Shown here: positions 6,226 through 39,100 of the stretch, piece after piece
How the letters are laid out: every line of letters starts with the position of its first letter
How positions within the stretch are numbered: position 1 is the stretch's first letter
IMG/VR virus record: IMGVR_UViG_3300030613_000001
Span: 1 to 63,520 of that record
Length of the DNA: 63,520 bases
Reading direction: 5' to 3' (one strand)
Source: a virus
Program-made: the position numbers and the translations under genes
Notes under the pieces: generated by a model
The model's database searches: none
Told to the model about the DNA's origin: nothing
Seen by the model: the letters and a program-made list of their open reading frames with translations, nothing else

Positions 6226-8864
6226 CACACCGCCCTCAACCCGATCCCGAGCATACCGGGCTTGCGTCCCATGTCCTCCGGCAGCCGGCCCTTCTTCACC
6301 GCCGGCAGGTAGTTCAGGACGCTGTGATAGAACTTGATCTTCCCCAGGCCCTGCAGCCCCGACTTCTCCGCCCAGGCTCGGTAGTTTTCAAACAACGTCT
6401 CAGCCGCCGCCTTATTGTCCGGCCCCAACTCACAGTTTTCGCTAACCCACATTAAAAACGGGTTCATCTCCTGAAGGAATCGCTGCTTGTCCTCTTCCAG
6501 TGTGTCCGTTTCCGCAAATCCCCGGCGCCGTATCAGCTCGCATGCCCCCTCCAGCATCCATAGAAAAATGCCGGCGCGTTCCTCTTGCAGCTTGGCCACC
6601 AGGTCCACGTCCCGCCGGTCCCCCTCGAAACGCTGGTTGAAATTCAGGATCAGGATCTTGCGCACGAACCCGTAGGACTTATCCACGATCGAGGGCACCT
6701 CGTTCAGCGCAAAACAGAACTTTGCCGTCGGGTAGAAGTCGATCCGTTGCTTGTACTTCCACTCCCCGCTCACCATGTCGCCCGAAATGCACTTCTTCAG
6801 CACGGATACCGCACTCGGCTCCCGCGTAGTCATCTCCGAGCACGTCACCAGCAGCTTGTCCTGCAGGTATGGTATGTTGAAACTCCGCGCCAGGTCGTCC
6901 AGGCTCATTTCAATGGTGTTCTCTTTTCCCAAAACCTGGATAAATGTGTTAATCACCGTGCTCTTGCCGTTCGCACCCGCCCCCACCAGGAACGCCGCCC
7001 GCTCGTACTTGCACGTCGGCAGCAGCAGATACCCGCCGTATTGCTGCAGCAGCTCCAGCTTGTCGTCGCCGGCGCAGTTTTTTCCGGTTTCCGCACACTC
7101 GCGTCCCTCGGGAAACATCTCCCATAGGGTCTTTGTCCACTTGTTGCACATTGCGTCGGGATCGAACTCCACCGGCAGCTGTGCCCGGCATCCATAAGCC
7201 GGATCGTGCGGCTTCAGGAGCTTGCCTATATCGATTTCCTCGCGCGGCGCGAACACCAACTGCTCAAGGTCGACCACGCCGTTCTTCAGGTTGATGATAT
7301 ACGGCCACCGCGCCCACTCGCTTTCTTCCCGGTTCACCATTGCGCTTAAGACCTGGCGGCTGCTCTTGATCCAATCAGCCTGAACCCGGTCCTTCATGGC
7401 CTGCACCACCATCTGATCGATTTTACTGTCCTTGTACCGCTTCCAGCACCCGTCCTGATACCGCCAGAACCCACCGTCCGTGCACACTATGGGCGCCAGG
7501 TACGCCGCCAGGTAGTTCGCCATGGTTTGCACCACGAACGCCGGCCTTCCGTGGTTGCCGCGCACCGTGAAAAACTCCATGGGATCGATGTCGAGCGGGC
7601 TCGGCAGTTCGGGCGCCCCCACCTCCACGCGCTCCGGCGTGATCGTCAACCCCTCCAGAACCCCGCTTCCGCACGTCTCCGGCGGCTTCCAGTTCGGGTC
7701 GTAGCCGGTCATGAACTTGATCAGCTTCTCGTCGCCCGAAATAACTTTCCGCGCATCGGCAAACGTCTTCCCGCGGCAACTGTTGTGCGAGCAGTGGTAT
7801 GATAGCTTGCCGTTGCTGTCCTGCAGGACCGCCGCGTCCTTCGCCTTGTGATCCGGGTTGAAGACGCACTCGGCAAGGTTGAAGCGCGTCATCACCCCCT
7901 GGTCGTCGACGCTGTGCACCGTGCGCCCGAACGCGGAAAGATACTCCTCGACCTTCAGCTTCCCCAGGTCGGGCGCCGGGTTCATGCGCTCGGCGGTTTT
8001 CCCCGTCGGACTCCCCCGCTTCGCCGGCACCCCCGTTTTACCTGATGTTGTGGGAGCGGCATCCTGCCGCGATTTTTTTTCAGCCGCCGGCGCCAGCGCC
8101 GCAAGCTGCTCCACCAACTCGATCGGCGTCACCGGCACCTGGTCGAACGTTTCCGGCGTATCCCCGAAAAGCTGGCTGCGCCGGTGCGGCCGGCTCTTGG
8201 TGGAGTCCCCCTTCCGCGCCAGGGTGGAGTAAAGCTTCCAGATCCTGGCCGGGTTGAACACCGACAAATCCACCTTCACCTTGTCGGTCGAAACCTTAGC
8301 CGCCACCGCCGCGAGGCAGCGCTTTACGATCGGGTCCCGCCGGTACTCCTCCGTGCAGGGGATGTCCGCGATCCGGTAGCACAGGTGATAGCCGTTACCG
8401 GAGAGCGCCTTGACCGGGGCCGCCCACCCCAGCCCGCGCAGGAACTCTGCCGCCGCCTTGGCCGCCTCGCCGGCAAGCGTCAGCTCCTCATCGGTCGCGG
8501 ACACCCCGGCCATCCGCTCCGGATCGAAGTCGAGCAGCAGCCAGCGCACCGCCCGGATATGCTGGTCGCTCGTCTGCGGCCGCTTCTTACTCGCCGTCAC
8601 CAGGTGGTTCGCGGCCTTGGAGATCGATTCCGGGTCCACCACGTTCGGCACGAAATAGACGCCGGCGGCCTCCGCCTTGTCGAGGGCTGCTGCCGCCCGG
8701 CCGAAGTCCTCGGCATTGTCGAAATAGCCGAAGACTACCGCGTCGTCGCCCTTGGCGAATCCATTCCAGGCTTGAGATCGGCCCGAAAGCCCCAGGGCCC
8801 GGATCTCCGTCACCTCGCCCGGACGGAAGAAGAGTCGATATACCTGCTCGGGAGTGCTCGGCAT
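6225..8864 (-). CDS. Bifunctional prim-pol (AEP) primase fused to an SF3 (P4/D5-type) helicase, 879 aa
   Basis: N-terminus has LLLDFDPER and SGNGYHLCYR (prim-pol motifs). C-terminus has the Walker A motif VGAGANGKST and D5/P4-type C-terminal region. Carries an in-frame REP-like insert (KKSRQDAAPT) in the interdomain linker. Confidence 0.9.
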   Translation of the reverse strand: MPSTPEQVYRLFFRPGEVTEIRALGLSGRSQAWNGFAKGDDAVVFGYFDNAEDFGRAAAALDKAEAAGVYFVPNVVDPESISKAANHLVTASKKRPQTSDQHIRAVRWLLLDFDPERMAGVSATDEELTLAGEAAKAAAEFLRGLGWAAPVKALSGNGYHLCYRIADIPCTEEYRRDPIVKRCLAAVAAKVSTDKVKVDLSVFNPARIWKLYSTLARKGDSTKSRPHRRSQLFGDTPETFDQVPVTPIELVEQLAALAPAAEKKSRQDAAPTTSGKTGVPAKRGSPTGKTAERMNPAPDLGKLKVEEYLSAFGRTVHSVDDQGVMTRFNLAECVFNPDHKAKDAAVLQDSNGKLSYHCSHNSCRGKTFADARKVISGDEKLIKFMTGYDPNWKPPETCGSGVLEGLTITPERVEVGAPELPSPLDIDPMEFFTVRGNHGRPAFVVQTMANYLAAYLAPIVCTDGGFWRYQDGCWKRYKDSKIDQMVVQAMKDRVQADWIKSSRQVLSAMVNREESEWARWPYIINLKNGVVDLEQLVFAPREEIDIGKLLKPHDPAYGCRAQLPVEFDPDAMCNKWTKTLWEMFPEGRECAETGKNCAGDDKLELLQQYGGYLLLPTCKYERAAFLVGAGANGKSTVINTFIQVLGKENTIEMSLDDLARSFNIPYLQDKLLVTCSEMTTREPSAVSVLKKCISGDMVSGEWKYKQRIDFYPTAKFCFALNEVPSIVDKSYGFVRKILILNFNQRFEGDRRDVDLVAKLQEERAGIFLWMLEGACELIRRRGFAETDTLEEDKQRFLQEMNPFLMWVSENCELGPDNKAAAETLFENYRAWAEKSGLQGLGKIKFYHSVLNYLPAVKKGRLPEDMGRKPGMLGIGLRAV
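8050..8073 (+). repeat. REP-like palindromic element, copy 1 (A/T-swapped stem)
   Basis: GTGGGAGCGGCATCCTGCCGCGAT; in frame in the primase linker (SRQDAAPT). Confidence 0.9.
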
Positions 8865-9487
8865 TATTTTTCAGGTGGCGGGGCGGCGGGGCCGGCGGCC
8901 GCCGGCCGTGGTTCATCCGGCAGCTTCAGCGTCCCGAAATTATCCTCATGATAACGAACGGCCCTGGCCACCAGATAAAACACCTGCTCCTCCAACCCAC
9001 GGTACTGCGACAGCGCCAAAAGCTTCAGCTTTCCGTAAAGCATCGGCACCCCGGCAAACACCTGGTCAAGCGCCCGGGCCGGCGGAACCGTCTCGCCGGC
9101 AAACGGCAACCGCCGCTGCGCTTCACCCGCGGGAGCGGCTTCCAGCCGCGATTCTTTTGCGGGAACGGCATCCTGCCGCGATTCTTCCGCCGCCTTGATC
9201 TTCTTAACGGCGGTGTAAATCGTGTTGATATTCCTGCCCATCTTCTGCGCCAGGGCGACAGTGGTCATCCGGTCGCGCATACCCTGCCGCACGATCGCCA
9301 TTTCCTCTTCGCTCATTTTCTTCCAGCGGCCCATGCCCCCTCCGGTAATATTCGTCTGATCGATCGGCACATTCTCACTCATCGGCCCCAGCCCGTGCAC
9401 ATATGCCACCCGCTTCGCGCACCGAACACACGTCGAATTGTTCTTGTCCGCCAGCTCATGCCGGCATCCGAGGCACGGGCTTTTCAT
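8864..9487 (-). CDS. Cys4 zinc-ribbon plus HTH DNA-binding protein (207 aa)
   Basis: N-terminus CLGC-x12-CVRC; HTH-like TTVALAQKMGRNINTIYTAVKK; two tandem in-frame REP-like inserts (EESRQDAVPAKESRLEAAPA). Confidence 0.7.
   Translation of the reverse strand: MKSPCLGCRHELADKNNSTCVRCAKRVAYVHGLGPMSENVPIDQTNITGGGMGRWKKMSEEEMAIVRQGMRDRMTTVALAQKMGRNINTIYTAVKKIKAAEESRQDAVPAKESRLEAAPAGEAQRRLPFAGETVPPARALDQVFAGVPMLYGKLKLLALSQYRGLEEQVFYLVARAVRYHEDNFGTLKLPDEPRPAAAGPAAPPPEK
9129..9152 (+). repeat. REP-like element, copy 2a
   Basis: GCGGGAGCGGCTTCCAGCCGCGAT; in frame in 8864..9487 (SRLEAAPA). Confidence 0.9.
9159..9182 (+). repeat. REP-like element, copy 2b (A/T-swapped stem), 30 nt from copy 2a
   Basis: GCGGGAACGGCATCCTGCCGCGAT; in frame (SRQDAVPA). 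Confidence 0.85.
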
Positions 9488-10272
9488 CAGACGACGAATC
9501 CATCATGTCTCAACAGCGTGACGGCTCCTGCCAGCATCCATAGAAACACGCCGTCTTTCTCGGCGGTAAGCTTCTCCAGCAAATCGGGATCGCGGTAACT
9601 GGCTGTGAATTGATGTGTAAATGGGATGATCAGCAGCCTGTCCATCAGCCCGTGCGCGAGCTCGTACCGCATCTCCATATTTATGTTCTGGCAGAAAATG
9701 GGCTTGCACGTGGGCTTGAAAGCGATCACCTCCCGTTTATACTTCCACCAGCCCTCCACAATGTCGCCGGCGATTATCGACTTCAATACGGCAACCGCGC
9801 GCTTGCTCCGGGGATTTAGATCACTGAAGGACAGTAACCTTTTGCCTTGCAAGGCAGGCGTGCTGAAAGCACTCTGCAAGTCGTCCATCACAGCAATCTC
9901 CGCCACAAGCGCGGACCCAAGAATCCTCCAAAGCAGTTGAACGAAAACGCTCTTTCCGTTGGCGCCGGCGCCTTGCAGAATGCACGCGCGGTTGTATCTA
10001 TTGTCCGGCAGCAGGATATATCCCGCGAACTGCTGCAGCAGATTGGCCTTCCCCCTTTCCATCGGAAATACTTCCTGCAGGTAGGCATTGAAACGCGGGC
10101 ATTTCGCCTCCGGCTGAAACTCGACGTTCAGCGGCGGATCGGACGCATCGCCTGCTCCATGCGGCTCAAAGACAACCGCATCCATAAGATCAGACCCGGC
10201 CGCCGCCAGCTTGCTTATGTTCACAACACCATTTTTTACTCTCACTCTGATATCGCCCTGCTCTTTTTCCAT
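9487..10272 (-). CDS. SF3 helicase / P4-family primase C-terminal domain paralog (261 aa)
   Basis: LQGAGANGKSVF Walker A and flanking sequence parallel the C-terminal half of 6225..8864 (FAGYILLPDNRYNRACILQGAGANGKS versus YGGYLLLPTCKYERAAFLVGAGANGKS). Confidence 0.8.
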   Translation of the reverse strand: MEKEQGDIRVRVKNGVVNISKLAAAGSDLMDAVVFEPHGAGDASDPPLNVEFQPEAKCPRFNAYLQEVFPMERGKANLLQQFAGYILLPDNRYNRACILQGAGANGKSVFVQLLWRILGSALVAEIAVMDDLQSAFSTPALQGKRLLSFSDLNPRSKRAVAVLKSIIAGDIVEGWWKYKREVIAFKPTCKPIFCQNINMEMRYELAHGLMDRLLIIPFTHQFTASYRDPDLLEKLTAEKDGVFLWMLAGAVTLLRHDGFVV

Positions 10273-10312
10273 ATGGCCATCCCTTCATTCGTTTTGAGTC
10301 GTGCAATGAGGT

Positions 10313-10693
10313 TCAAACCACCTTCCTCTTCACCAGCGCAAAGCACATCCCCGAACTCACCACCATCCAGGGAATCCGCCGGCGCGTGTAGTCGACCGCA
10401 AACTGGTAAAGAATCCCCCACTCCTCCGGCGCAATCGCCGGCAGCACGTCGTAAAGCTCCTTCGGCGCAGCCCGCATCAGCGCATCCGACCGGAACCCAG
10501 CCACCGCCTGCCCGGCCGCCGGGCAAATCTGCACCATGCCGGCCTTGCGCCAGTCCTCCCGCAACTGGCATTGCCTGCCGGCCGGGCTCGCACACACCGG
10601 CTTGGCCGTAACCCCCCAGGTCCCCTCGATCGGCGTCAGACAATGCCGGCAACCACCGAAATACAGACACACCTCAAGCGTCCGCGAGGCCAT
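10313..10693 (-). CDS. Hypothetical Cys-rich protein (126 aa)
   Basis: ATG 10693 preceded by GGAGGAAGG; the track ORF starts 6 nt upstream at a GTG. Confidence 0.6.
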   Translation of the reverse strand: MASRTLEVCLYFGGCRHCLTPIEGTWGVTAKPVCASPAGRQCQLREDWRKAGMVQICPAAGQAVAGFRSDALMRAAPKELYDVLPAIAPEEWGILYQFAVDYTRRRIPWMVVSSGMCFALVKRKVV

Positions 10694-10695
10694 GC

Positions 10696-10896
10696 TCACC
10701 TTCCTCCATCCCTGTGCCGCTTCAAATATTCATCGATCTCGCGCACGTCATATCGCACCTGGACCCCCACCTTTTGCCGTGGCATCGGCATATCCTTCAT
10801 GGTCCGCACCGAAATCCCCAGGTAAACCGCCGCCTCTTCCACCGTCAGCAACGGCGTCGTAATGGTCACCCCTTTTCCAATGTCGATCGTCTTCAT
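10696..10896 (-). CDS. Excisionase / AlpA-MerR-like HTH DNA-binding protein (66 aa)
   Basis: LLTVEEAAVYLGISVRTMKDM ... typical of the excisionase-family helix-turn-helix; SD GTGAGGAAA. Confidence 0.7.
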   Translation of the reverse strand: MKTIDIGKGVTITTPLLTVEEAAVYLGISVRTMKDMPMPRQKVGVQVRYDVREIDEYLKRHRDGGR

Positions 10897-11084
10897 GCAA
10901 TTTTCCTCACCGCATAGCGGCTGGTGATCACCCTGAAGCCATCACAAAACTCCACCAGGCACGAATTCTTCTTGCCCCGGGCCAGCACACGGCAGAGCTG
11001 CCCTTTACGCTCCGGCAGCCACTTCCGCCAAAACCACACATGCGTCAAAACGGGAAGAACGATGTCCCTGGCATCTGGCGCCAT
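10893..11084 (-). CDS. Possible small hypothetical protein (63 aa)
   Basis: In-frame ATG at 11084 within track ORF 10893..11249; overlaps the end of the upstream gene by 40 nt; weak support. Confidence 0.3.
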   Translation of the reverse strand: MAPDARDIVLPVLTHVWFWRKWLPERKGQLCRVLARGKKNSCLVEFCDGFRVITSRYAVRKIA

Positions 11085-12104: not shown

Positions 12105-12114
12105 CAGGCCGCCC

Positions 12115-12380
12115 TCATTGCTTAACCCCGTCGAACGTAAGCGCCTGCTCCGGTATCGGCCCATACTGCTCCTCCCATGCGGCCGTGCAGCGTTCCAGCA
12201 GCCGCTGTAGGCTGCGCGCGTGCATCGGGCTCATGTAGGCCTTCGCCACCGGAACGCAGGGCTCCTTGTCCCCCCCCCCGAACCCGCCACCGGAATCAAC
12301 CGCATAAAGTCGATCACCAGGTCGAACGGCCGCGTGTAAACCAGCACCCTGTTGCTGTAGATCACCGGAACGTCATTCAT
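12115..12380 (-). pseudogene. Gene interrupted at a G10 homopolymer (two reading frames; -1 shift or 11/8 G needed)
   Basis: SD AGGAGGGTGAGGG plus ATG 12380 opens MNDVPVIYSNRVLVYTRPFDLVIDFMRLIPVAGSGGG. After the G10 run (C10 on + strand, 12270..12279), GC3-rich coding continues in the -1 frame: DKEPCVPVAKAYMSPMHARSLQRLLERCTAAWEEQYGPIPEQALTFDGVKQ, stop at 12115. Confidence 0.6.
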
Positions 12381-12948
12381 TTCCCTCACCCTCCTGCGCC
12401 TGGGGGATGTCTGCATTTGTGGGAGCGGCTTCCAGCCGCGATTCTTTTTCGTCAGCCTTGCCCGCCGGCGGCAACGCAGCAATCTTTTCGCCGCCGTAGC
12501 CATATTCGGCCCCGCAATCCTTGCAGAAATACGCCGGCGCCAGCACAATCTGGTCCTTGGCCGCTCCCACCGCCAGACGCGAGACCCGCTGCACGCCATA
12601 GCCGACCGCAAACAGCTCCCCGGCGCCGATAAGCGGCGCGCATACCCGACAGCGTTCGAGCTTGCCGTGGTCCTTCACGAACGCGGGAATGTCCTCGTTT
12701 TCAAGCGCCCGGCCGCAGCAACGGCAGCACATCACCTCGACCATGGTAAGGCTTTCCTGCCTGGTCCGGCCCGACGACACCACGGCCGGCAGCCGGTAGA
12801 TGTTCATCACGCGGTCGAAATACCTTCCACCGCATTCCCCGCACACGACCGGCGTCATGTGCTCCTGCCGGATCGGCGTCGTTCGAATCCCGCCCGAAAC
12901 CGCCGGCTTGTGCTGATTAATGAATTGCTCCTGAAACCTACGTCCCAT
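12373..12948 (-). CDS. Multi-CxxC zinc-finger protein (191 aa)
   Basis: CGECGGRYF, CCRCCGR, CRVC and CKDCG motifs; in-frame REP-like insert near the C-terminus (EKESRLEAAPT). Confidence 0.7.
   Translation of the reverse strand: MGRRFQEQFINQHKPAVSGGIRTTPIRQEHMTPVVCGECGGRYFDRVMNIYRLPAVVSSGRTRQESLTMVEVMCCRCCGRALENEDIPAFVKDHGKLERCRVCAPLIGAGELFAVGYGVQRVSRLAVGAAKDQIVLAPAYFCKDCGAEYGYGGEKIAALPPAGKADEKESRLEAAPTNADIPQAQEGEGNE
12419..12442 (+). repeat. REP-like element, copy 3
   Basis: GTGGGAGCGGCTTCCAGCCGCGAT; in frame near the C-terminus of 12373..12948. Confidence 0.9.
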
Positions 12949-13019
12949 GGTTTCCCGCCTTTCGATCCACCAGGATCATCAGCCCGCAGCCTAACGCCAT
13001 GACCGCAATCCCGATAAAG

Positions 13020-13266: not shown

Positions 13267-13277
13267 GCCACACCTCC

Positions 13278-13763: not shown

Positions 13764-13778
13764 AGATGCCCCCCCTGG

Positions 13779-15617: not shown

Positions 15618-15643
15618 GACCACTGTCCTCTCTTGCTATTCCT

Positions 15644-15991: not shown

Positions 15992-16007
15992 TTTTATGAT
16001 CCTTTCT

Positions 16008-16230: not shown

Positions 16231-16231
16231 C

Positions 16232-17135: not shown

Positions 17136-17138
17136 GCC

Positions 17139-20765: not shown

Positions 20766-21005
20766 TCACCCGATGATCTTGAACTTGTGGGAGCGGCTTC
20801 CAGCCGCGATCTTCTTCTCTTTGCCATCCAGGTAACGGCCCCAGTCGTCCCTCGTGAAACGCTTGAACGCGCATCCCCGTCCGCTCTCGACCTGGGGCAG
20901 AAGCAGATCGACCTGGGCCGCAAGCGCGTCCAGGTCGAGAATCGTGCGCTGCTTGAGCGCCTCGATGGATTGCCGGATCAATCTCAGTTCGTCGTAGGTT
21001 GACAT
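20766..21005 (-). CDS. Hypothetical coiled-coil protein (79 aa)
   Basis: ATG 21005. The C-terminal tail KKIAAGSRSHKFKIIG is encoded by a REP-like copy read in a different frame from the other embedded copies. Confidence 0.55.
   Translation of the reverse strand: MSTYDELRLIRQSIEALKQRTILDLDALAAQVDLLLPQVESGRGCAFKRFTRDDWGRYLDGKEKKIAAGSRSHKFKIIG
20787..20810 (+). repeat. REP-like element, copy 4
   Basis: Consensus sequence; read in another frame (IAAGSRSHK) at the C-terminus of 20766..21005. Confidence 0.9.
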
Positions 21006-26544: not shown

Positions 26545-26560
26545 CAGCGATCCTCCCGTT

Positions 26561-26584
26561 GTGGGAGCGGCTTCCAGCCGCGAT
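26561..26584 (+). repeat. REP-like element, copy 5 (intergenic)
   Basis: Consensus sequence between the lipoprotein stop (26591) and the SD of 26317..26544. Confidence 0.9.
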
Positions 26585-26590
26585 TTTTCT

Positions 26591-26749
26591 TCAGAACTGG
26601 CTTGCGGAAATGAAGCAATACAAAAACGGCTGCAGATACCACGGGATGTCGGGGAACCCGTGCGCCAGCGGCACGGGAGCATTGAAAAACCGGCATCCGC
26701 CCACAACCACCACGGCAGCCACGGCAGCCACCAGCAGATACTTCTTCAT
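26591..26749 (-). CDS. Small lipoprotein (52 aa; not in ORF track); o-spanin candidate
   Basis: GGAGGGGAAAG SD, ATG 26749; MKKYLLVAAVAAVVVVGGC lipobox-like signal; stop at 26591..26593. Confidence 0.5.
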   Translation of the reverse strand: MKKYLLVAAVAAVVVVGGCRFFNAPVPLAHGFPDIPWYLQPFLYCFISASQF

Positions 26750-26764: not shown

Positions 26765-27124
26765 TTAGTACGGCCCGGGCGGGGATATGCTAAGCCCATG
26801 CGGCGTGGATAATATGCTGTGACGCCGCCCCGGCCACACGAAAGTCAGGTGCGATCCAGGGAGCACATAGGCTGCCCCGTCCTCGAATTTAACGGTCGTA
26901 ACATCCCCGCCGGCGAGCGAATATTCGACATTGCTAACCACGCCCGTGTGCACCACGTTCGCGCCCGCCGAAACCGGCTCCGATACGGCCGCCGGCGCAG
27001 TGACTTCCGGCTCCGAAAACACCTCGAGTACCGCGCTCATCCCTCCCAGAACGAAAATCACGGCCACGGTAATAATAGTTGCAATGCTGGTGAAGACCTC
27101 TCCGCGATTGTCACCGATTCTCAT
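26765..27124 (-). CDS. N-terminally anchored membrane protein (119 aa); weak i-spanin candidate
   Basis: ATG 27124 overlaps the giant-gene stop (ATGA); TM segment FTSIATIITVAVIFVLGGMSAVL. Confidence 0.55.
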   Translation of the reverse strand: MRIGDNRGEVFTSIATIITVAVIFVLGGMSAVLEVFSEPEVTAPAAVSEPVSAGANVVHTGVVSNVEYSLAGGDVTTVKFEDGAAYVLPGSHLTFVWPGRRHSILSTPHGLSISPPGPY

Positions 27125-30100
27125 GGCGTCCTCCTTTTGTAGGCTTCCTTGTACCACTTGCCCGCCCGCTTCACCGTCTCCCGGTCCTCGGAAGAAAGCG
27201 AGTTATAGAACTTCGTGCGGTACTTTTTCGGCAACGCCGCCAGCGGGTTGGCGCGGTCCACCGACATTTTCAACCCCTTCATGTTGCCGCCCAGCTCCTT
27301 GTACTTCTTGAGATACCGGGCGGCCGCCTCGGCATCCCCGTACTTTAGCGCGGTTTTGTACCAGTAAAGCGCGTTGCCCCGATCGGTGGGCTCGTGGAAT
27401 GGCCGCTCTATGTTCCGGTCCTCGAGGAACCGGGAAACCAGTTCGCGTGCTCCGTAATAGGCCGTCTCCCCCGGGTTCGCGCTGTAGGAAAACGTCCGCA
27501 TGATGTCGTCCCACACCTGGCCGGCCAGGTCCCCGCCTTTCATCGGGCGCCCAACGACGCGCCGGTAGAAGGATTCCAGGGACAGCATACGCGCCACGTA
27601 CTCGCCCTTGTCGCGGATCGGCCGCGGCCGCCAGAACTCGGGATAAACCGTACGTCCGGAAATAAGTTCCGCCCCGCCCTTGATGTCCGGCCGCATGCCC
27701 TGTATCAGTTTGTTCGCGGGTTCGGCAGCCGCCTCCCCCAGCCACCGGTAGACCGTCTTTTTCCCGGTGGCGAGATCCTTCATATCCTCCGGGAAATCGT
27801 GTAGGTTGAACCAGCTCAATGCGTCGGAGAGCGCCCCCTGCAGGCGCAGGCTTATGATCGACCCGTCCGACCGCCGCCCCAGAATCAGGTGCATCTGCCG
27901 GCGGCCCTCTTCGCCCAGCTCGTCCTCCTCGTCCGGGAACATCAGCGCATTCCAGAGTGCGACTGCCCCGTAAATCATGAAAGCCTTGGCACCAAGGAAG
28001 GCCGCCTTCTTGCCGGCTACCGCCCCCATCAGCGCGACACGCCGGCCGGCCGGCTCGCCCTCCACCGCGATATTTCGCATCATCCGCCAGTAGCGCGGCG
28101 CGTTGATCTCCTGCCAGCTGTAAAACGGAATCAGCTTGCGCCGTAGCCAGCGCCCACCCTTGGAAAGCCCGCCATAGTCGCCCACCAGCTCGCGCGAGAG
28201 CAACCCCGCCTTGCGGTCGATCTCGTCGTTTGCGATCGCATCCACCTTCGACGGCAGACTCGCCCCATAGACCCGCTCGCCGGCGGCAACCCGTTCCTTG
28301 AAGTACCTGAAGGCGGCAAGCCGCAGCACGTTTTCCCGCCAGCTCGTGAAATTCTTGGAGCCGTGCCAGAATCGCGCAATCAAATCGATTGCCACGTTGT
28401 CGCGGGCACCCATTGCGCGCTCAAGCTGCCGGAATTCGGGAAGCTTGCCCACGTCCGGGATATCGTGGGCCGTGATCCCGCCGATCACCCCGTGCTGGAG
28501 TGCGGCCTTGAACTCGGCTTTAAGCTCCGGGCTCATCGACTTGTCGTAGTGGTAGGCCCATAGGTCGCGCATGGCGCGGCCGGCGTGCTTGAGGATCCTC
28601 GGATCGTAGGCAAGGGCGATGTCCAGATCGCCACTCAGGTTGTTCAGGTTGTACTTGACCACGCGAAGCGGGTTGATCAGGATCCAGCGCTTCCACATGT
28701 TGAGGGTGTTTTCCGCCAGGCCGCTCACCACGTTGTCCTTGCCCTTGCTCTGGAAGTCGGCACCGTCCATCACCTCGGCGAGCTCGGCCGGAATCACCCA
28801 GCGCACGTCGGCACCGCGCGCGAGCACCGGTCGCGTGTCGCCGGACTCAAGCTGCCGGTTGCCTGCCAGCACCTCGCCCAGGATCTGGTCGTTGATGGAG
28901 TTCGTCATGTACCAGGCCGTCCCCGGCCGCGGCACCCACTCGGCCCATCCGGTCGATCCGGCCCGAGGTGCCAGTTGTTTCATCGTGTTGCGCCAGGTGA
29001 CATACCGGCGTCCGAGTGCCTGCTTCCTGAAGGCGCCTTTCTCGGTCGGGTCAAGCGCCTCGTACTGCTGCTTGAGTTGCGGATCGGATTTCAGCATGGC
29101 CTTGAACGCCGCCTTGTTCTGCCTGCGCGCCACGTTCCGCAACTGGGAGATGACGTTCGCGGACCGGCCGATATCGTCCAGCACCTTCTTCCTGGCCAGC
29201 CGCTCGTAGCCCTGCGCCAGCACCTGGAACTCGCTCTCGATGTACTTGGTGTTGTAGTCCTTGATCGACCCGGTGCGCGCGTACTGCCAGCCCGCCTTGC
29301 GTACCCGCACCTCGCCCGCCTCGACCCCGGCGGCGTGCTTGGCGTTGGCGTATTCGAGCACCTGGTGGTGAAAGTAGCGATCGTCGTCCAGCACACTCTC
29401 GGGCAGCATTTGCGCGTTGACCAACGCCTGCCGCAGTTTGCCCATTACCGCCTGGCGCCGGTTGAGCGCGTCCCGCACCTTGGGACGGGCGACCATGGCC
29501 GCGTCCACCTTGGCGATCGCGGCATCCACCTCGTCCTTGCTCTTGAACCCGAAGGCGATCTCGCCCTCCGCGTCCACGATCTCCCGCCAGCTCTCCAGCA
29601 CCCCGCCCGGCTCCATGTCGCGCGTCAGGTCGTCCAGCACGAGCTTCAGCCCGAACAGGTCATGCTCGGCGGCGGTCATGTTTTTCGGCTCCAGGATGTC
29701 CTTCAACTCCATGATGGCGCGGGCCTTGCCGTAGTCCCCGGCCTCCATGAATTCCCGCAACAGCACGTTTTCGCGGCCGAAACGCGCGTTCGGCATCTTG
29801 GGAAACATCCGGCCCGGAGTGAAGGTTGCCACGGCAAGCTTCGTTTTCTCTTTGATCGTTTCCAGCAGCTTCGTCCGTTCTATCTTGGAGGCGCGGTACC
29901 GCTCCGCCACCGCCGCCGGCAGCACGTCCGTCACGATGTCGTATTCCTCTTCCCCCGCTTTTGTGGGAGCGGCTTCCAGCCGCGATTCCTCTCGCGCCCG
30001 CAGCGCCCCCGCCTCGCGGTATCCCGGCCCGGCGGCGCGCTCGGCCGCCAATGTACCCTCCCCGCGCCGCTCATACACCCGGCCGCTCTCGATCTCCCGC

Positions 30101-33100
30101 ACCACCCCGCGCGCCGTCACCTTGAACAGGTTCACGATCGCATCCAGGAAGTCGGCCACCGTGTCCAGGATCCGCTTGAGCGATCCGCGATGCTCCTTGC
30201 GGTCGGCGAGCTCCTGCCGGATCCAGTTCGCCCGGTCCTCCTTGCCGCCGATGTCCTTCGGGTTCTTAGGCTCCCACCGGCCGGCCGCGGCCTCCTGCCG
30301 GATCTTGTTCCGCAGGGCCACGATGTCGTCCTTGGCGAGGATCCCGGCGTCCTCCATCCAGTGCACGGCTTCGTGCTGCAGCACCCAGGCGTTGGTGCCC
30401 GCCCCGCGCACAAGCCGCACGACCCCGCGTCGGCGCACGTAGGCCCCGGCGGCCTTGTACTCGCCTGCAGGCTGCTTCGTGCCGAAATAGGCGTCCACCG
30501 TCGCCTGGTCCACGGAAACATGCTCGACGCTGTGCACGTAAAGCTGCCGCCCGGCCATGGTGGTGATCCAGATCCCGCCATCGTCCTGCGTGATCTTCTG
30601 CCCCGGAAACACCGCCTGCACGTCTTCAAGAGGGATGTCATTGCCGGCGATTTTTTTGCCAGGCTCGATCGCGTATTCCTCTTCTCCGGCGCCGGCCGCG
30701 GGGATTTCCGCCGCCGCCTCTTCCGCCTCGGGCGTCTCCGCCGGACCTTCGCCTTCCGTGTCCACCTTCGTCATACTCAGCAGACCGTCCAGCGCATTGC
30801 CCTCGCCCGCCTCTTTGCTAACCTGGGACGGTATTTTTTTAAGCTCTTCCTCGATTGCGTGCAGCCGTTCCTCGGCCTCTTTAAGCTCGGCGGCCTGGCC
30901 GAACGGCCGCGTCGCTATTTTCTTGAACTCGCCCAGGTCCTTGCGCATCTGCTCGATGTGCTTTTCGGTGTTCGCGGGCCGCTCGTTGATTCGTGCGATC
31001 TCGTTTTCGAGCGAGCTCAGCAGCCCGCCCATCTTGTTGACGGCGCGTTTGATTAGAAAATCTTCGCCCTTGCGGCCAAACCCCACGGCGATATCGAACC
31101 CGGATAATTTATATTCATTGATTTCATGCAGTTTGTCGTAGGCTATGAGTTCTTTTTTCCGCTGGTCTATATTGGAATATCCGTTTTTGTTTGTATAAAC
31201 CGGACGGATGCCGACCTGCACATTGTGCCTGTGCGCGGTGAAGTTGAAATGCATCACCGGGCGGTTTTCCTTGTAATCCGCCCATTCCGCTGTGGTCATT
31301 GTCGTCGGCAGCTTCTTCTGTTCGGTCGTCTCAAAAGCAACAAGCGCCTCGTTTAGCGCCTTGCGGTCGGCCGGTTTCCCGCGCACCACGAACTCGGCAA
31401 GTTTACCGCCAGGGATGGTGCGCTCAAGCTCCGCCGTCTGGTCTTTTTCTTCTTTAAGTGCCGTCTCCCAGTTCGGTATCCGGTCCCCTTCGAGTTCGCC
31501 CGCCTGGCGCCGCGCCATGGAAACCTCATGCTCCCAGCGCAGGCGCGCCCGCCGCAGCTTCTTCACCTTCAGATCGACGTCGGTCTTTTCAAACACCAGG
31601 GGGTTGCCGGAGAAAGCCGCCATCATTTCGGCAAGGCTTGCCTGCTCTTCGCTCAACGGATCGTCGAACTCGCGGCCCTCGATGTCGCCCACCAGCATCT
31701 GATCGATGAAGCGCTGCTTTTTCGTCAGCCGGTCGTACATCACCGAGTCAAGGGTCGCGCGCACCCCGTAGTTGTAAATCCGCACCTTGGGGTTGCTGTT
31801 TCCCTCGCGCACAATCCTGCCGTTTCTCTGCTCGATGTCCATCGGCCGCGGCGGCACGTCCACGTGGTGCGCGGCGTACAGCAGATCCTGCATGTTGACG
31901 CCCACGCCGAGCTTCTGGCTGCTGCCGATCACGACCCGCACCGCACCCGAGCGCACCCGGTCGAACAGCGCCTCGCGTGCCGCGTCTCCCTTTGCATCGG
32001 TCACGACCGCCACTTCTTCCTTGGGGATACCCTGCTCGATCAGCTTGGCGCGGATGTCCTCGTAGGCGTTGAAACGCCCGGTGCTGTCGCGGTAGCTGTC
32101 CAGAAACACCACCTGCGTCGAGCGGTTGCCGGCGGTCCCCTTCCACACCTCGAAGACGTTCTTGACCACCTGGTTGAGCTTGCTGTCCGGGTGGTCGTCG
32201 TTCCTCGCGTTCACCAGGCGCATATCCACCGCGGCCTTTTTGGCAAGCCCGAAGAGCACGAGCGGCACGTGCCGGTTCTTCATCTTCTCCTTACCGGACA
32301 GATGGTCCCACTGCTCGCGCGCAGCCCTGATCTGGTCGATGAACCGGTTTAGCTGGGGCGTGCGCTCGACCGTCACGAATTCGGGTTTCCCGCCGGCGAT
32401 GTCCGGCAGTTTCAGCCCGGCGTCGCGGGTCAGCTGCACGTCGGCCGCGGTGCGCCACATGGTGAGCAGCTCCAGGCCGTTCACGTACTTGTTGAAGCGC
32501 TCCACCTCGCGGTAGGTTCCGGTCTCGGTTTCCTCGAGGGCCGTCTGTGTCCGGCCGAAGGTCGCCGCAAAATCGTCGAACAGCTCGATCCCGTAGTCTT
32601 CCAGCAGGTCCGGCCGCACGTAGCGCACGATCGTCCAGAGTTCGGCCGTGGTGTTCGATATCGGGGTCCCGGTCGCAAGGATCACGTTCTTGCCGCCGGT
32701 TTTGCCCTGCACGTAGCGCGCCTTGAGGAAAAGCGATGTCGAGCGCTGGGAGGCGCCGCTGTCGATTCCCTTCACCTTCGCCATCTTGGTGAAGAACTCG
32801 CTTCTCTTATAGGCGTGCGCCTCGTCCACCAGGAGCGCGTCGATTCCCATCTGCTCGAACGGTATGGCCTTGTCCTTCCTCCGGTCGAGCGCTTTTTCCA
32901 GGCGCGTCTCCTTGCGCTGCTTTAACGCCTCGAGATCCTTTACCGTCCAGTGGTCGGCGCCCTCGTCCTCGGCTTCGGCCAGCGCGGTATTGATCATGTC
33001 GATCTGCTCTCGGATGAAAGCCGCCTCGCGTTCGGGGTCGTCGGCGATCCCGTCGAAAAAGCTGTGCGGCATCACGATTGCGTCCCAGTCGCCGGTGGCC

Positions 33101-36100
33101 ATCTGCGAAAGCAGCCGCTGCCGGTAGCGTGCCGCGCGCTGTTTTTCGTCCGGGATCAGGACACGGGCGCCGGGGTAAAGCCGGTTGAAAGCCTTGCGGT
33201 ATTGCCCGATCGTGGAATTCTGCACCACGATCAAGGGCTTCTTCGCCGTTCCCACTCGGCGCATTTCCATGGCCAGGCTGATGAAGGAGTAGGTCTTGCC
33301 GGTGCCCACCCCGTAGGAAAAGATCGTGCTCTCGCGCAAGCCGCGCGCCACGAACCGCTTTTGCAACGGACGCAGCTTGATCTGCGGGTTGGCTCCCGGG
33401 AAGTGCTCGATCCTGGGGTTGGTCTGCGCGCGCAGCACGTGCCCGTTTTTTTCTTCGTTGTAGATCTCGGCAAGATCCTTCTTCCAGCGCTCATGCGCCC
33501 GGGCCCAGCGCAGAAACTCTTCCTGGATCTCTTCCTGCTTGGCCTGGGCCGCCTCGGTCGCCTCGACGTCCTTGACGGTCCGGCGCACGCCGTCGTCTAT
33601 CTCCGTGTAAGTGACCTGCGGACGCTTTAGGTTAAGCGCGTCGGCCACGAGATCGGAGCCGCTCATCCCGCCGGCGCCCCAGGTCTCGCGGTTAAGCGCC
33701 GCGTACTCGCCGTTGGTCACCTCCATGTGCCAGCGGCTCATCTCGTTGTTCTTGCTGAAGGCCGCCCGTGCATCGACCCCCATGGTCTCTTTTAAAAAAT
33801 CCTGGATGGATTCGGCCGGAAGCCACGGGGACCCCAGCTTGAAGTGGATAAACTCGATGTCGACCGCAGCCGGCTGCACCGCTTCGAGTGCCTTGACGTT
33901 GCCGGCGTACTCCGGGTTGTCCTCGGCTGCCGCCTGGGCGGCTTTCAGCTTCTTCTTGACATTGCCGGAAAGGTAGGCGTCGGGCGCTTCGAGCAGCCCG
34001 GTCTGCGGGTTTAAGAAGGCCAGGCCCTTGGTCACGAGTTCGGTGCGCACGTCGGTCTCGTCACGGCCGATCAGTTGCGCGATGTAACCCGTGTCCATCC
34101 CCGCGCGATAGACCTCGGATAGCGAAACGGCGTCCTCGATGTTTTCGGCCGTCGTGGGTTCGACAAAGGGGTAGATCGTGCGCTTGGTGAAGGTGTCGCT
34201 CTTGGTGAAGGTCTTTACCTTGCGGTTGGTCGGCTGGCCCTTGTTCTTGCCGCTTTTGACCGTATCGGCCACGATGGCCACTTCCTCGTTTTCGAGGGAG
34301 TCGACCACCGGGAACTCGATATCGATCTTCTTTAAAAAGCTGTTGGAGGTATCGCCGATGTAGCCGTAAAGGCGCACGTATTCGTCGTAGGAGCGGTTCA
34401 GCTCGGCGCGCAGGGTGGCAAGTTCCGCGTCGGTTGCCTCGTGCGTGTTGCTGCGTTCGATCAGGGTCTTGTGGGCCGACTTGATCTTCAGGTACTGGGC
34501 GGCGCGGGCCTTGCGGCTTGCGCTCGCAAGTGCCGCGACCTCTTTCCCCTTGGAGTCGATCAGGGTCGGGGCGACAAGCTTCCCCTCGGTGACCATGTAG
34601 ATCTCGCCGTCGCGCTCGATCAGGGCGCCGTCCGGGTCCCCGCGCTCGGCGTACTTCACCGGGCCGGCCGCCGCCTCGGCCGCCTGGCCCTCGCCCATGA
34701 TGTTCTCGGGGAAACGGCCGACCGCATGAATCAGTTGCAGGTTGAAGTCGTTCCGGTCGCCGAGCGGCTCCACCGTGTATTCATTATCGGAGTACATGGT
34801 GCCCTGGGTGGAGTGCTTGCCGAGCACCATCTCAGGGTGTTTCACGAAATACTCGTTCACGAACGCCTTGCCGTCTTTGCCGATCGCAATCTCTTCGGCC
34901 ACCCGGAAATCCTGGGCGAGCCCGTAGCTCGATGCATCTTTCTTGCGGAACACCAGGATGTCGGTCACGACCTCGGTGCCGGCGTTCTTCTTGAACGCAT
35001 TGTTCGGCAGCCGGATCCCGCCCACGAAATCCGCTTTCTTGGCGAGCTCCGCGCGGATCTCGCCGTTGGTTGCGGCGTCCAGGGTAAAGTGGCTGGTGAT
35101 CGCAACCACCAGGCCGCCCGGCCGCACCGCGTCGAGTGAGCGGCCGAAGAAATAGTTGTGGATGCTCCATTTCTCGTATTGCTTGCGTTTGGGATCGAAA
35201 ACCGAGAATTTGCCGAAGGGGAAATTCGAGATCACCAGGTCCTGGGTGTTGTCTCCCAGTCCGCGCGCCTTCTCGAAACCGCTGATTTGCACGCGCGCCT
35301 GCGGGTAAAGCTTGGTCAGGATCTTGCCGGTAATGGCATCGAGCTCGACCGCGTTGACCCTTGACTTTTCCGCAAGCGTTTCGGGCATCATGCCGATGAA
35401 ATGCCCGACGCCGGCGGCAGGCTCGAGTACCGCTCCGCCCTTGAACCCCAGGCGCGCGACCATGGCCCACATGCGGGTGATCACGTCGCGGTCCGTGTAG
35501 TGGGCGTTTAACGTCGAGGCGCGCGCGGCGTCCCACTCTTCTTGGGTGAGGGCCCCGCCCAGCGCTGGGTGCAGTTTTTTTCCGTACTTGGATTTCCAGG
35601 TGTTGAATTTGTCGAGCGTGCCGGTCTGCCAGAAGGTCCGCTCGGGGGTCCTGCGGCCCGCGGCAAAATCGTCCAGGGGGCGGGTGTATTCCTCGTTGAA
35701 GATTTTTTGCGCAAAGGCGCCCCACCCCACGTACTGGGCGAGCACCTTCTTTTCTTCGGGGGATGGGTTGCGGTTTTCGGCGTAAAGGCGATTGACAAGC
35801 TCGATGGCCTTGATATTGGCCTTGATCTTGCCTTCGTCGCCCGGGGCGATCAGCTCGTCATCGGGAGCAATGACGTGGTTGCGGTCCTCGGGAGCTAACT
35901 CAACAGGGCGTCGAGTATCTTCTCCCGCTCGCTTTCCGGCAGCGGCTTCGGGGGATTCGAGGAGAGCGCCGGTCCGTCCGCCGGCGCCACGATCCGGGCG
36001 AGCACCAGTTCGTCCGCCTCGGTGCGGTCGATTCCCTGTTGCAGCAGCCGCACCTGCTCCAGGCTCGCCACTTGCAGGTTGCGCAGCAGCTCCGCCTTCA

Positions 36101-39100
36101 GCTTCGCCGGGGATTTCTCGAACAGGTTCTTCACCCGCTGCGGCTGGTTGTCCAGCAGCCAGATCAGCCGCGCTTCGTACATCGGATCGCTTTGCGGGTT
36201 CTCGATCTCCAGGCTCGAGGACTCGACCTGGTTCAGATCCTTCAGGCTCAAAGCTTTCATCGGCCACCTCCTTGGTTGGTGGTGACGTTTGTTCAATTAT
36301 AACGCTTTCCGGGGGTTTTTCAAGAGTTTTCTTCCCCGTCAACGTAGCCGTGGCGTCTGTCTTAGGCTTTGCGCTCAGCTTGATCGCATGAAATTTACCA
36401 TTGCGGTCGCTCAGATCCAGCCGGTCCAGGGTGATCTCCTGGCCGCTGAAACGCTTGTCTCCGGCGTATTCCTTGCCCTTTCCGGGCATCACATAGGCGA
36501 TCGTGACGTGCGGCTTATAATCCTTGTGTGTCTCGCCCGGGGCCTTCTCGGTTTCGCCTACCAGCCGGTTTGCCCGGTCGAGGTCGGGGCTCGTGACGTC
36601 GGCCTTGACGACATCGTACTTCTCGCCCGCAAAAATAGAGACGTCACCGAGGGTTGCCTTGATGGGCCCGAAACCTTTGAACGCCTTCCGCAGGTTCTCC
36701 GGGGAATCGGTCGCAAGCCCATAGCGCACCGTTACGTGGGGTTTCTCCTCGCGCCCATAGCCATCCGTGTCCGCCGGATCTACATAGAGATCTTCGTCCG
36801 GGATCTCGCGGGCGAAGTCCCTGATGGAATCCGCCACATCCGCCGGCATGTCCACCTGGGTGCTGCTGTAATCGTGAGCGATCGGTATCTGCTCTTCAGA
36901 TTTCGCTTCGGCGGCTGGAACCGCCTTCTTTCCCGTCAACGTTTCCACCGCGCGGGTCTTGTGTTTTTCAGGAATCGCCGCCGCGGGGACGGACTCCCGG
37001 GCCGCCTCACCTTCCAGGCCCTCGCCGGCCCTCGGCCGCAGAACGAATCCACCCTCCACCGCGGCGACATCGTGAGAGCCTTCGAGTTTCTTGCCCCGCC
37101 GCGCAAAACGCGCCGCATTCGCGTTTTTGTATGGCTGGCCATCCTTGTTGAGAATGTCGCCCTGAGGGATCGGTTTGCCGGGCAGCGTCGCCGCCGCGAC
37201 TTCAGCGACTTCCTCCTTGCCGATCAGACTCTCTATCTCTTTCCGGCTGTACGGGCCGCGCCACCCGCTGACTTTCTCTATGGTAATCGGAGCGGACACC
37301 CATTGCGGCTTGTCATCCGCAGCGATGTACCATCCGCCGGTTTTGGTCCGGGCGTCTTCCTGGAACGCCTGCTCGTCTTGAGATATGTAACTCTCCGGGA
37401 TTACCCGCGGTCTTCCGGTCAGCGTCGCTACTGCATCGGTCCTGGGCTTTTCGGACTGGTCTCTTTCCTGCTGCAAACTGTCCGTGATGCCCGGGTACTC
37501 GTCGAGCACCTCCTGCGGCACGGGCTTGTCTTCACGCAAAGCATTGAGCACCCGGACGTAGTGGTTGGCTCGCGCCAGACGTTCTTGCCCTTTAAAACGG
37601 GCAGCGTCGCGCCACTTGATGATAACCGCCGCCTGCGCGTGCTTGTTGGGCATGGAGACGTTTTCGCCGATCGTGCGCGCGATCTCACGCAGCGAATCGG
37701 CATGCTCGCGCTCGGCCAGGGACTCGATTGTGTCATCTGAGATCCGGCGGCGTATGTCGATCGACCGGGCGATCCTACGGGCACGCTCTTCTTTTGTGCC
37801 GGATTTCGGGATGCCCATGACGATGGCGAGCTGCTCAATCTCTTTATTGGAACGGTCCTTAACCTGCGCGTAGTCGATATTTTGCGGATCGAGCGCCAAG
37901 ATCGACTTGGCGGGAACCTTGAGCGCATCGGGGTGTCCTTTCCTAAACTCCCGGGGAGTCATCTGCCATGGTTCTTTTTTCTCGGCAGTGTCGGTTTTTA
38001 CCGCTTCCGCGGCCTGCGGCTGTACGACCTCGGCGGCTGACACCGGTGGTGCTTGTCCCTGCATAGGGGAAGGCGAGATCGTTGAACCTTGGGCCTCTAA
38101 TGCAGTCGCCCCGGCAAGCCACGGCGCCGCTGCTTCCACGGGTAGAGTTTCGGTCTTTTGCGCGGTTTCCGCCTGAGGAAGAGCTTCCGCCGCCGCTGCT
38201 TCCTCCACCGCCACCACGGAAGCCTGCCGCATCGGGGCGGATCGGCCGGTCAAAAGCTTGCGGATATCGGTCTTCTTCCGCTCCGGGGCTTTTGCCTGGG
38301 CGGTTACGTCCTCGCCGGTGGCGCCGATCGGCGGCGCCTTCTCTTCCGTGGGAGCGGCCTCCAGCCGCGATTCCTCGATGTCCTCCGAAATGGCCCTGCC
38401 CTGCAATACCGCCTGCAGCGCCCCCTCGCGCCAGCGCTCGGCAAGCCCCTTGTCCACCCGACCTAATTCGTCCGCCACGGCACCCACGGCCGAAAACCGG
38501 TCTTCCGCACCGGCATCTGGGTCCATCAGCGCGTCCCGGACCTGCCCGGTGCGCAGCTTGTGCACCCCGCCGCCGACAGCGCCGAAGATCAGGCTCGCCA
38601 CCCCGATCTGACCGAAATTCTCCTTTACCGCACCCCAGAACCGTTCGTCGCCCACCTTGTAGGTGTGCTCGATCTCGGCCTGGGTGCCCACGTTGACAAG
38701 CTCGCCCGCCGTCTCCGTCCCGGTCACCGCAAGACCGCGCTTGGCCGCCTCGGACCAGGAGGACGAAATCAATCTCTTGATACCGTCCTTCGCCGCCGCC
38801 TTGGCCGGCTTGGTGAGCACACCGCCCATTCCGACGGTAGCAAGCTCCAGGGCGTCCGTAAAAAACTCGAACCCCGCCTCGGAGGCCCCCATCAAAAGCG
38901 CCGCGTGCTGCGCCTCGTCCTTTGGAACCCCTTTCTTGACGTATTCGTCATAGGACTGCTGGTACTGCGCAAGGCCAAAGAGCGGCGCCCCCATGATGTA
39001 GCCGAGTGCCGCTCCGGCGGCTCCGCCCGTCGCAGCACCGAGCGCCACCGTGGGAGCCGCCACCCCCAGGGAGGTAACGGCCGACTCAACCCCGCCCGTC

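Follow-up and report, generated by a model that had tools for sequence, protein, structure and literature searches.

Repetitive extragenic palindromes (REPs) of the GTAG-1 type combine a GT[A/G]G tag, an unpaired dinucleotide, a short GC-rich stem-loop and a conserved 3-nt foot (PMC3733652), and are known from proteobacterial systems in which REPs, or REP doublets forming hairpins (REPINs), go together with REP-associated tyrosine transposases (RAYTs; Nunvar 2010, PMC2817692; Bertels and Rainey 2011, PMC3116915; Di Nocera 2013, PMC3733652). As a rule, mobile elements, prophages among them, are "REP deserts" (PMC3390384). Bacterial REPs that lie within genes have been documented, as a minority (PMC3733652); there, in-frame REPs or REP dimers add 7–30 residues to unrelated proteins, many of them concerned with replication or repair (Di Nocera 2013, Additional file 3, PMC3733652). 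Here we describe ten REP copies in the IMG/VR virus record IMGVR_UViG_3300030613_000001, analysed over its whole length of 63,520 nt (positions 1 to 63,520; hereafter the window). They share the tag, stem-loop, covarying variants and 3-nt foot of the proteobacterial REP/REPIN–RAYT systems, but come without a RAYT, stand as singletons rather than inverted doublets, lie on one strand, and are intragenic in seven of ten cases. The …APT reading frame encountered below is found in bacterial intragenic GTAG-1 REPs too, for example as ASKLAPT in a P. fluorescens LolA-family protein (PMC3733652); those copies, however, lie in the REP-bearing chromosome's own genes, whereas here the genes are viral, strand and frame are uniform, and the copies differ between relatives. 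The reading we favor, with a probability of roughly 0.7, is that REP units of the bacterial host were inserted into the phage DNA and subsequently filtered by selection.

Other small elements also bear comparison. Rickettsia palindromic elements (RPEs) were reportedly described by Ogata et al. in 2000 as selfish palindromic DNA lying in frame in many unrelated protein genes. The phage repeat follows this pattern, being palindromic DNA in frame in five unrelated open reading frames (ORFs), absent from homologues and confined to linkers and tails; RPEs are likewise absent from orthologues and tolerated at surface or linker positions, and are translated. At 25–30 nt and 8–10 residues, however, the phage element is shorter than RPE-1 (100–150 bp, 30–50 residues) and has an identifiable cognate transposase family, the RAYTs. 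Small non-autonomous mobile DNA that is polymorphic among related viral genomes is also known, as the mycobacteriophage mobile elements (MPMEs) and the MITEs (miniature transposable elements with inverted repeats) of giant viruses; in contrast to the REPs, these measure hundreds of bp, are usually intergenic or gene-disrupting, and are not shared with a host REP population. In-frame REPs and RPEs are known in bacteria; what is new here is to meet the phenomenon in the genes of a virus, as densely as in a chromosome and with one fixed polarity.

The preliminary description of this sequence had listed ten REP-like copies, seven of them in frame in five ORFs, and pattern search, covariance model and translation confirmed these counts (Table 1); translation in all six frames also gave each of the peptides listed there. 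The degenerate 22-mer GGGARCGGCNTCNNGCCGCGAT has exactly ten matches in the window, 10/10 on the + strand and all antisense to the local genes, amounting to one REP per 6 kb; shuffled sequence gives an expectation of 0.01 copies and reached ten in 0/100 shuffles. The unit reads GTGG-GA-GCGGCT-TCC-AGCCGC-GAT(T), or in general form GTGGGA-GCGGCN-NNN-NGCCGC-GAT(T), with the tag GTGG in eight of the ten copies and GCGG in the tandem pair. Run unfiltered, a covariance model built from the phage copies returned only these ten, at 50–61 bits (21.7 bits for the overlapped 9161 copy); the next match in the window scores 11 bits, leaving no decayed copies and none on the opposite strand. All 120 stem cells pair, the closing pair covarying as UA (11), AU (6), GC (2) and UG (1). 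Across 220 core bases there are three single-base departures from canonical bacterial variants, as against ~20% divergence from the related phage contig L222, a contrast that speaks for young copies. Two of the three, the one-sided stem changes, form G.U pairs on the mRNA-sense strand where the other strand would have A.C. No Rfam 15 family matches anywhere in the window at gathering score. Three other classes were tried and rejected: a CRISPR repeat, because the spacing is irregular and the copies are REP arrays; an N4-like hairpin promoter used by a virion RNA polymerase, since the domains of the giant protein are helicase- and ligase-like and no RNA polymerase was found; and a sense-strand intrinsic (Rho-independent) terminator, ruled out because the hairpin is followed on that strand by CUCCCACAAAA without a U-tract. 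A terminator-like pattern occurs on the antisense + strand only (six copies flagged).

Judged by its sequence and surroundings in bacteria, the repeat is a genuine bacterial REP of the GTAG-1 type. The main variant of the phage, the 25-mer GTGGGAGCGGCTTCCAGCCGCGATT, occurs identically in a Desulfosudis oleivorans metagenome-assembled genome (MAG; L108) at 1593–1617 (+), with its exact reverse complement at 2135–2159, the two bracketing a 155-aa Y1_Tnp/RAYT gene (ORF 1652–2119) whose product matches Pfam Y1_Tnp (PF01797) at E = 1e-8 and is 35–38% identical to known RAYTs by tblastn. The word "REP-like" is therefore correct in the strict sense. The RAYT queries were six published sequences from a paper's supplement, and with them tblastn found two RAYT genes in the sampled bacterial loci; the REP-flanked ORFs that were found there first encode Uma2 and DUF4351 proteins, not RAYTs. 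A bacterial scan, at one genome per species, yielded at least 120 stretches with the 22-mer, in which the copies are dispersed, occur in both orientations and often form inverted pairs; one MAG carries at least ten TTCCA copies in seven sampled loci, and inverted pairs are seen in L018, L028, L044 and L058. The matches listed include MAGs labelled Desulfobacterales, Gammaproteobacteria, Poribacteria, Omnitrophota, Verrucomicrobiia and Actinobacteria, and lineage-specific stem variants in bacteria keep the closing pair complementary (T-A, A-T, G-C or C-G). Matches between the window and bacteria are confined to the unit (modal length 24–26 nt, maximum 36 nt), with no host flanking DNA.

A Woeseiaceae MAG (L104 4561–4703) carries five head-to-tail REP copies with an exact 30-nt period, as in the tandem pair of the window, which suggests that the 30-nt unit can amplify in tandem in bacteria too and strengthens the earlier idea of a 30-nt unit; the array was not counted as a bacterial in-frame example, its ORF looking spurious. 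In the window, both tags of the tandem pair (9129–9183) have changed from GTGG to GCGG, and these copies may be immobilized if RAYT recognition needs the tag. The architecture, the inverted copies around a RAYT gene and the dispersed bacterial copies are those of a REP, and only the extragenic location is not. The phage itself has an integrase and no RAYT: Pfam searches of 74 window ORFs plus the primase and the giant protein found no Y1 transposase, and tblastn with the six RAYTs gave no match in the window. With no RAYT and no inverted doublets, the phage is a carrier of REPs, not a REPIN–RAYT system.

How the unit is translated points to the DNA rather than the protein as the level at which it spread. 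Six coding copies are read in the frame …SR(L/Q)(E/D)A(A/V)P(T/A), and the copy in the 79-aa protein is read in a second, as IAAGSRSHK, so that the two reading frames reported earlier stand. In place of the shared …APT peptide of the preliminary description, the tandem copies, which carry GCGG, encode …APA and …VPA. Codon usage is the same in all six same-frame copies except for a single synonymous difference among 42 core codons, and the peptide variants are always paired, as LE, QD, HD or RD, because the two residues represent the two sides of the covarying base pair that closes the stem. In the unrelated viral contig L013 the opposite REP strand is read in frame, as VGAASSRD. Because three copies are non-coding, one is in another frame, codons are shared and the variants follow the stem pairing, the repeated peptide is best supported as the by-product of a DNA element and not as convergent protein evolution, as had been proposed.

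The proteins that contain the unit tell the same story site by site. In the primase-helicase, the peptide KKSRQDAAPTTSG (aa 265–272) falls in a segment, aa 258–299, between the conserved N-terminal primase domain and the Zn-binding/D5_N part; the homologues L138 (the closest relative; 63% identity, full length) and L139 (41%) align on both sides of it and have indels or unrelated sequence within it, and neither the REP nucleotide motif nor the peptide was found in 84 loci encoding primase homologues. The 207-aa protein contains EESRQDAVPAKESRLEAAPAG at aa 103–120, from two copies 30 nt apart; its 16 homologues share the Zn ribbon and C-terminal helices, and the linker with both REP units varies among them in length and sequence. 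The AlphaFold model of this protein (mean predicted local distance difference test score, pLDDT, 79.9) has a helix up to residue 107 and a pLDDT below 50 at residues 116–132, in agreement with the disordered linker that had been anticipated. In the 191-aa CxxC protein, EKESRLEAAPTNA occupies aa 170–177, beyond the end of homology at aa 149, and the tail of a relative is 27 residues shorter and different. The 79-aa protein ends in KKIAAGSRSHKFKIIG, in the second frame of the REP. Its L138 homologue (53% identity) terminates in …EGREGK, exactly where the REP-coded IAAGSRSHKFKIIG of the window starts; copy 5 therefore sits on a former gene end and lengthens the protein past its ancestral stop.

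The giant protein carries two sites. At site 1 (aa 382–389), four homologues each have a different short sequence, the 84%-identical P0001 having EEADSSELIADSKKP. The relative that encodes P0001, L222 (~80% nucleotide identity), lacks the copy at window 38350: its flanks are ~90% identical to those of the window, and a GCTGATAGC micro-repeat stands in place of the REP. L222 has its own REP ~200 residues downstream of site 1, at a place without one in the window; orientation and frame are unchanged (PESRLEAAPTE). At site 2 (aa 3177–3184), similarity to the giant proteins L140, L141 and P0005–P0024 starts just after the REP, and in the sole homologue alignable across it a linker rich in G/Q/A takes this place. 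No match to the giant gene came up by megablast among 50,697 deposited phages, nor did a protein search with giant aa 2900–3450, swamped by low-complexity words, find one. A second motif of this protein, T(D/R)A(V/T)(A/E)TLTG(R/K), occurs four times in its N-terminal third (window 36295–38253; aa 421, 698, 859 and 1058), and similar (E/A)(I/L)LTGRxAPxRQPS motifs recur in the homologues P0001–P0003. This motif seems to be repeated at the level of the protein, perhaps as a site for processing or binding, and is unrelated to the REP.

Comparison with homologues supports the placement of every coding copy in a hypervariable linker or C-terminal tail, which upholds the earlier proposal of tolerant sites. 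No homologue carries the same peptide at the same site, for any of the coding copies. The expectation that homologues would lack just the 8–10 inserted residues was borne out only in part: they have no REP peptide at these positions, but the difference is not a clean insertion, the REP replacing unrelated hypervariable sequence. At the linkers and spacers where the window has REPs, relatives show purine-rich micro-repeats, (GGCTGAA)n, GCTGATAGC x3 and (GGCGGAA)n, at L222 5190–5230, L009 6600–6640, 7190–7240 and near 9150–9270, and L016 1528–1560. From these sequences, hypervariable linkers and spacers appear to be general hotspots for the turnover of small repeats.

Table 1. REP copies in the window and the genes that contain the coding copies.
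Feature	Coordinates	Strand	22-mer match start	Description
REP copy 1	8050..8074	+	8052	stem GCGGCA/TGCCGC; in frame in primase-helicase linker, SRQDAAPT, aa 265-272
REP copy 2	9129..9153	+	9131	tag GCGG, stem GCGGCT/AGCCGC; first member of head-to-tail pair; SRLEAAPA, 207-aa protein
REP copy 3	9159..9183	+	9161	GCGGGAACGGCATCCTGCCGC; one stem change giving G.U on mRNA-sense strand; SRQDAVPA
REP copy 4	12419..12443	+	12421	in frame in non-conserved C-terminal tail of 191-aa CxxC protein; SRLEAAPT, aa 170-177
REP copy 5	20787..20811	+	20789	second frame (IAAGSRSH); 14-residue C-terminal extension of 79-aa protein
REP copy 6	26561..26585	+	26563	intergenic; core 7 nt (hairpin 9 nt) past TGA of 52-aa lipoprotein gene
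REP copy 7	29963..29987	+	29965	in frame in giant protein, aa 3177-3184; linker opening conserved C-terminal module
REP copy 8	38348..38372	+	38350	GCGGCC...AGCCGC (U.G on mRNA-sense strand only); in frame in giant protein, aa 382-389
REP copy 9	47281..47305	+	47283	intergenic; loop variant ATCAT; one-base overlap with adaptor gene TGA; most of 44-nt spacer
REP copy 10	54554..54578	+	54556	intergenic; 13 nt past TAG of 54591-55055; 30 nt identical to L108 RAYT-flanking REP
Primase-helicase	6225..8864	-		weak Prim-Pol match aa 77-194; D5_N, DUF5906, Pox_D5 aa 459-853
207-aa protein	8864..9487	-		Zn ribbon, helical middle domain, variable linker, conserved C-terminal helices
191-aa multi-CxxC protein	12373..12948	-		contains REP copy 4
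79-aa protein	20766..21005	-		C-terminal extension encoded by REP
Giant 4130-aa multidomain protein	27121..39513	-		2'-5' RNA ligase-like, ResIII/SNF2/Helicase_C, conserved C-terminal module

Gain and loss of REPs are visible among related phages. A 61.7-kb relative has one REP copy in its whole contig against ten in the window, with none in the 22.6 kb around its primase. Behind the adaptor gene, the window and L016 both have a REP in the spacer, that of L016 being a different stem variant, whereas L006 and L011 have none. Among 17 motif-carrying viral stretches, eight are relatives of the window's structural module (45–82% amino-acid identity): the L001 group has a REP between the homologues of 55152–55604 and 54591–55055, L009 an in-frame REP in a scaffold-like protein, and L011 a REP upstream of the homologue of 48005–48907. 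Unrelated phage contigs also carry the unit in frame, as ESRQDAAPT in the tail of a lambda-family portal protein (L012) and in a capsid fusion protein (L014). A scan of viral contigs with the neighboring gene 39537–41075 brought up no relatives. Searching the 50,697 deposited phages with 35 nt of REP sequence produced chance-level matches only, so that no deposited phage genome carries the element, and the literature searches turned up no description of REPs within the coding sequence of a phage.

With its 127-nt terminal overlap (bases 1–127 equal 63394–63520), and with 100% identity across the 21 kb fetched from an independent assembly in ENA (k141 contig, 63,534 bp), the window represents the complete genome of a phage, circularly assembled, with 63,393 bp and 60.6% GC. 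Pfam identifies a terminase, a capsid protein, SU10-type adaptors, an M15 peptidase, two DNA methyltransferases, the D5/primase-helicase, the 4130-aa multidomain protein and a tyrosine integrase; given the integrase, the phage is likely temperate. The - strand carries nearly all genes from ~3.3 kb onward, and the GC skew of the + strand is negative in every 3-kb bin, including two regions with + strand genes, which suggests a single strand polarity beyond what transcription alone explains, replication and transcription effects being inseparable in skew. As for the host, it is most likely a Desulfobacterales bacterium of ~61% GC. The correlation of tetranucleotide usage with the window is highest for Desulfobacterales MAGs of 61–64% GC (r = 0.90–0.915) that carry the same stem variants; the two variants of the phage, TTCCA and ATCCT, each present also as a one-base derivative, co-occur in such MAGs. 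The product of 51352–52404 starts from a signal peptide and contains an fn3 domain; over 84 residues, this domain shares 55% identity with a protein encoded on a contig of a Desulfobacterales MAG (L085 4877–5122), and the product is possibly a host-derived surface module and host clue. The fn3 similarity and the tetranucleotide usage are suggestive of the host, not proof of it.

Several further features of the genome were noted in passing. There are weak PEP-CTERM and N_methyl Pfam matches in the phage proteome. A 39-nt inverted repeat at 322–475 (92% complementary, arms 76 nt apart, around a very AT-rich stretch) lies in a gene-poor region beside the integrase module and is a candidate attP, origin or regulatory region. 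ORF 49936–50868 contains two tandem 234-nt copies (50083–50550, 91% identical) that duplicate a 78-residue Ala/Gly/Ser-rich segment; its product is a probable tail or fiber protein.

Taking these observations together, the following course of events may be envisioned. The repeat would belong to the REP/RAYT system of the host lineage, from which single REP units of ~25–30 nt would have entered a temperate phage genome without flanking host DNA, probably through insertion by the host RAYT acting in trans on single-stranded phage or prophage DNA. Such entry would have been repeated and recent. Purifying selection would then have left only the harmless copies, namely those in stop-proximal spacers and frame-keeping units in disordered linkers or C-terminal tails, and coding units would be translated as the by-product peptide (E/K)SR(L/Q)(E/D)AAPT.

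A number of points weigh against this reading. First, because no exact pair of filled and empty sites was recovered, we infer the insertion boundaries and mechanism; at the one site where DNA can be compared with DNA, the REP stands in for ~39 nt of an unrelated micro-repeat instead of forming a clean insertion. The five proteins that contain coding copies are all singletons in 90%-identity clusters, and thus there are no near-identical strain variants to supply exact empty sites. The host, too, is inferred. Second, the phage copies are singletons and one head-to-tail pair, whereas REPIN theory has inverted doublets as the mobile unit, and we know of no REP for which RAYT-catalyzed insertion has been demonstrated. 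Third, a single orientation is shared by all ten copies and by all copies in related phages. Singletons between co-directional genes in bacteria are, by a crude count, unbiased (11 antisense vs. 8 sense), and some unrelated viral contigs have the REP in sense orientation. Stop codons do not account for the strand bias, because all six reading frames of the unit are open. Fourth, six of the seven coding copies share one frame (p ~0.02), as do 10 of 11 once the anti-oriented in-frame copies from other viral contigs are counted in (p ~4e-4), which random insertion would not predict; such a bias could arise if insertion preferred targets in purine-rich runs of E/K codons, or if the peptide were under selection. 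Finally, that no copies have decayed is compatible with their having arrived very recently and equally with selection maintaining them. Strand bias, frame bias and the lack of decayed copies are left unexplained by host REP insertion followed by selection, and leave room for a strand-specific function.

Considering that RAYTs are Y1 HUH relatives of TnpA(IS200), and that insertion sequences of the IS200/IS605 family (IS608, ISDra2) move as single strands, recognize hairpins and have a strong orientation bias tied to the replication fork (PMC6006769), a fork-linked bias of this type would, by analogy, be a natural source of the 10/10 strand bias. Unlike these elements, however, the repeats have no transposase gene in the phage and no left and right end structures, and GTGG lies on the C-rich strand of a genome with negative skew, which is not the polarity that a simple analogy with IS608 predicts.

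Alternatively, the REPs could be domesticated strand-specific cis-elements, that is, RNA stem-loops serving as 3′-exonuclease barriers or processing sites in long polycistronic transcripts, or DNA hairpins to which a host or phage factor binds. Post-stop copies would brake terminating ribosomes or mask the next ribosome-binding site, and the peptide would be the price paid inside genes. This idea, compatible with a host REP origin, is unlikely, although the intergenic copies speak for it. All three begin 0–13 nt past stop codons, hence within ~15 nt. Copy 47283 overlaps the TGA of the adaptor gene 47304–48002 by one base, copy 54556 begins 13 nt past the TAG of 54591–55055, and copy 26563 lies between a 52-aa lipoprotein gene (26591–26749, with ribosome-binding site and ATG) and the next ATG at 26545, its CUCCC tail being able to pair with the GGGAG ribosome-binding site of that next gene. 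The 52-aa ORF follows immediately downstream of the giant gene cluster; its ribosome-binding site is strong, and its signal (…VVVVGGC) is of the lipoprotein type. Liang, Rudd and Deutscher reportedly found in 2015 that genes of E. coli are expressed less when a REP lies within ~15 nt of their stop codon. Total strand bias (10/10 in the window and all copies in L001, L009, L011, L016 and L222, against unbiased bacteria), the absence of decayed copies and the pairing of both one-sided stem changes on the mRNA-sense strand would also be expected of such elements, and related phages often carry other GC hairpins in the same late-operon spacers. Close relatives nevertheless lack copies at the same positions, the hairpin is weak (~ -10 kcal/mol, z-scores mostly above -2), the sense strand has no U-tract and Rfam no match, and two G.U pairs are statistically meaningless (p ~0.25).

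It is also conceivable, if quite unlikely, that one or a few REP units were acquired once and then spread by phage recombination or gene conversion between purine-rich microhomologies (GAA...AAA). Outside the bacterial unit, too, the phage copies are alike, being preceded by AAGAA and followed by ACAAAA on the sense strand, and such a spread would fit their uniform orientation and frame and their occurrence as singletons rather than REPIN doublets. The 3′-side A-run, however, belongs to bacterial copies as well. At least two canonical bacterial stem variants are present in the window (TTCCA and ATCCT, both found in Desulfobacterales), which speaks for several acquisitions, and relatives carry other host-type variants such as GTCCC.

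A third possibility, that selection acts on the protein and favors the peptide as a functional short linear motif, for example a protease or binding site, with the nucleotide similarity secondary, is largely refuted and very improbable. The peptide is hydrophilic and lies in exposed linkers, and the shared frame of most coding copies is what such selection would give; yet it leaves out the three non-coding copies and the one in the other frame, the codons shared between copies, the residue variants that track base-pair covariation, the identical DNA of a bacterial RAYT-flanking REP, the homologues without the peptide and the opposite strand read in L013. That host REP reads were joined chimerically to a phage contig is hardly credible: the sequence is a metagenome assembly and the 127-nt terminal overlap is an assembler signature, but the independent assembly includes two copies in its identical 21 kb, long ORFs run intact across copies, and related contigs from other samples carry copies of their own.

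What, then, would REPs in a phage mean? REPs are usually taken as markers of old, stable chromosomal DNA, and their presence here extends the REP/RAYT world into viral genomes. They can remodel viral proteins, through insertions into linkers, extension beyond a former stop, and, in the giant protein, placement where modules join. Gain and loss among related phages offer a natural system for dating REP movement, which is hard in bacteria, where movement is very slow, and the uniformity of strand and frame gives a concrete starting point for asking if REPs insert in connection with one particular DNA strand. An exact REP match is usable as a host-assignment signal for uncultured phages; conversely, REPs can mislead annotation, by way of spurious "shared motifs" and repeat-based contig joins. 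Finally, a more far-reaching idea, which we regard as rather unlikely, is that this phage clade keeps REP hairpins in fixed orientation as useful strand-specific RNA or DNA signals read by the REP-binding machinery of the host. If so, REP signals could set mRNA stability or translation, or mark phage DNA as "self", and such phages could ferry REP families between distant bacteria.

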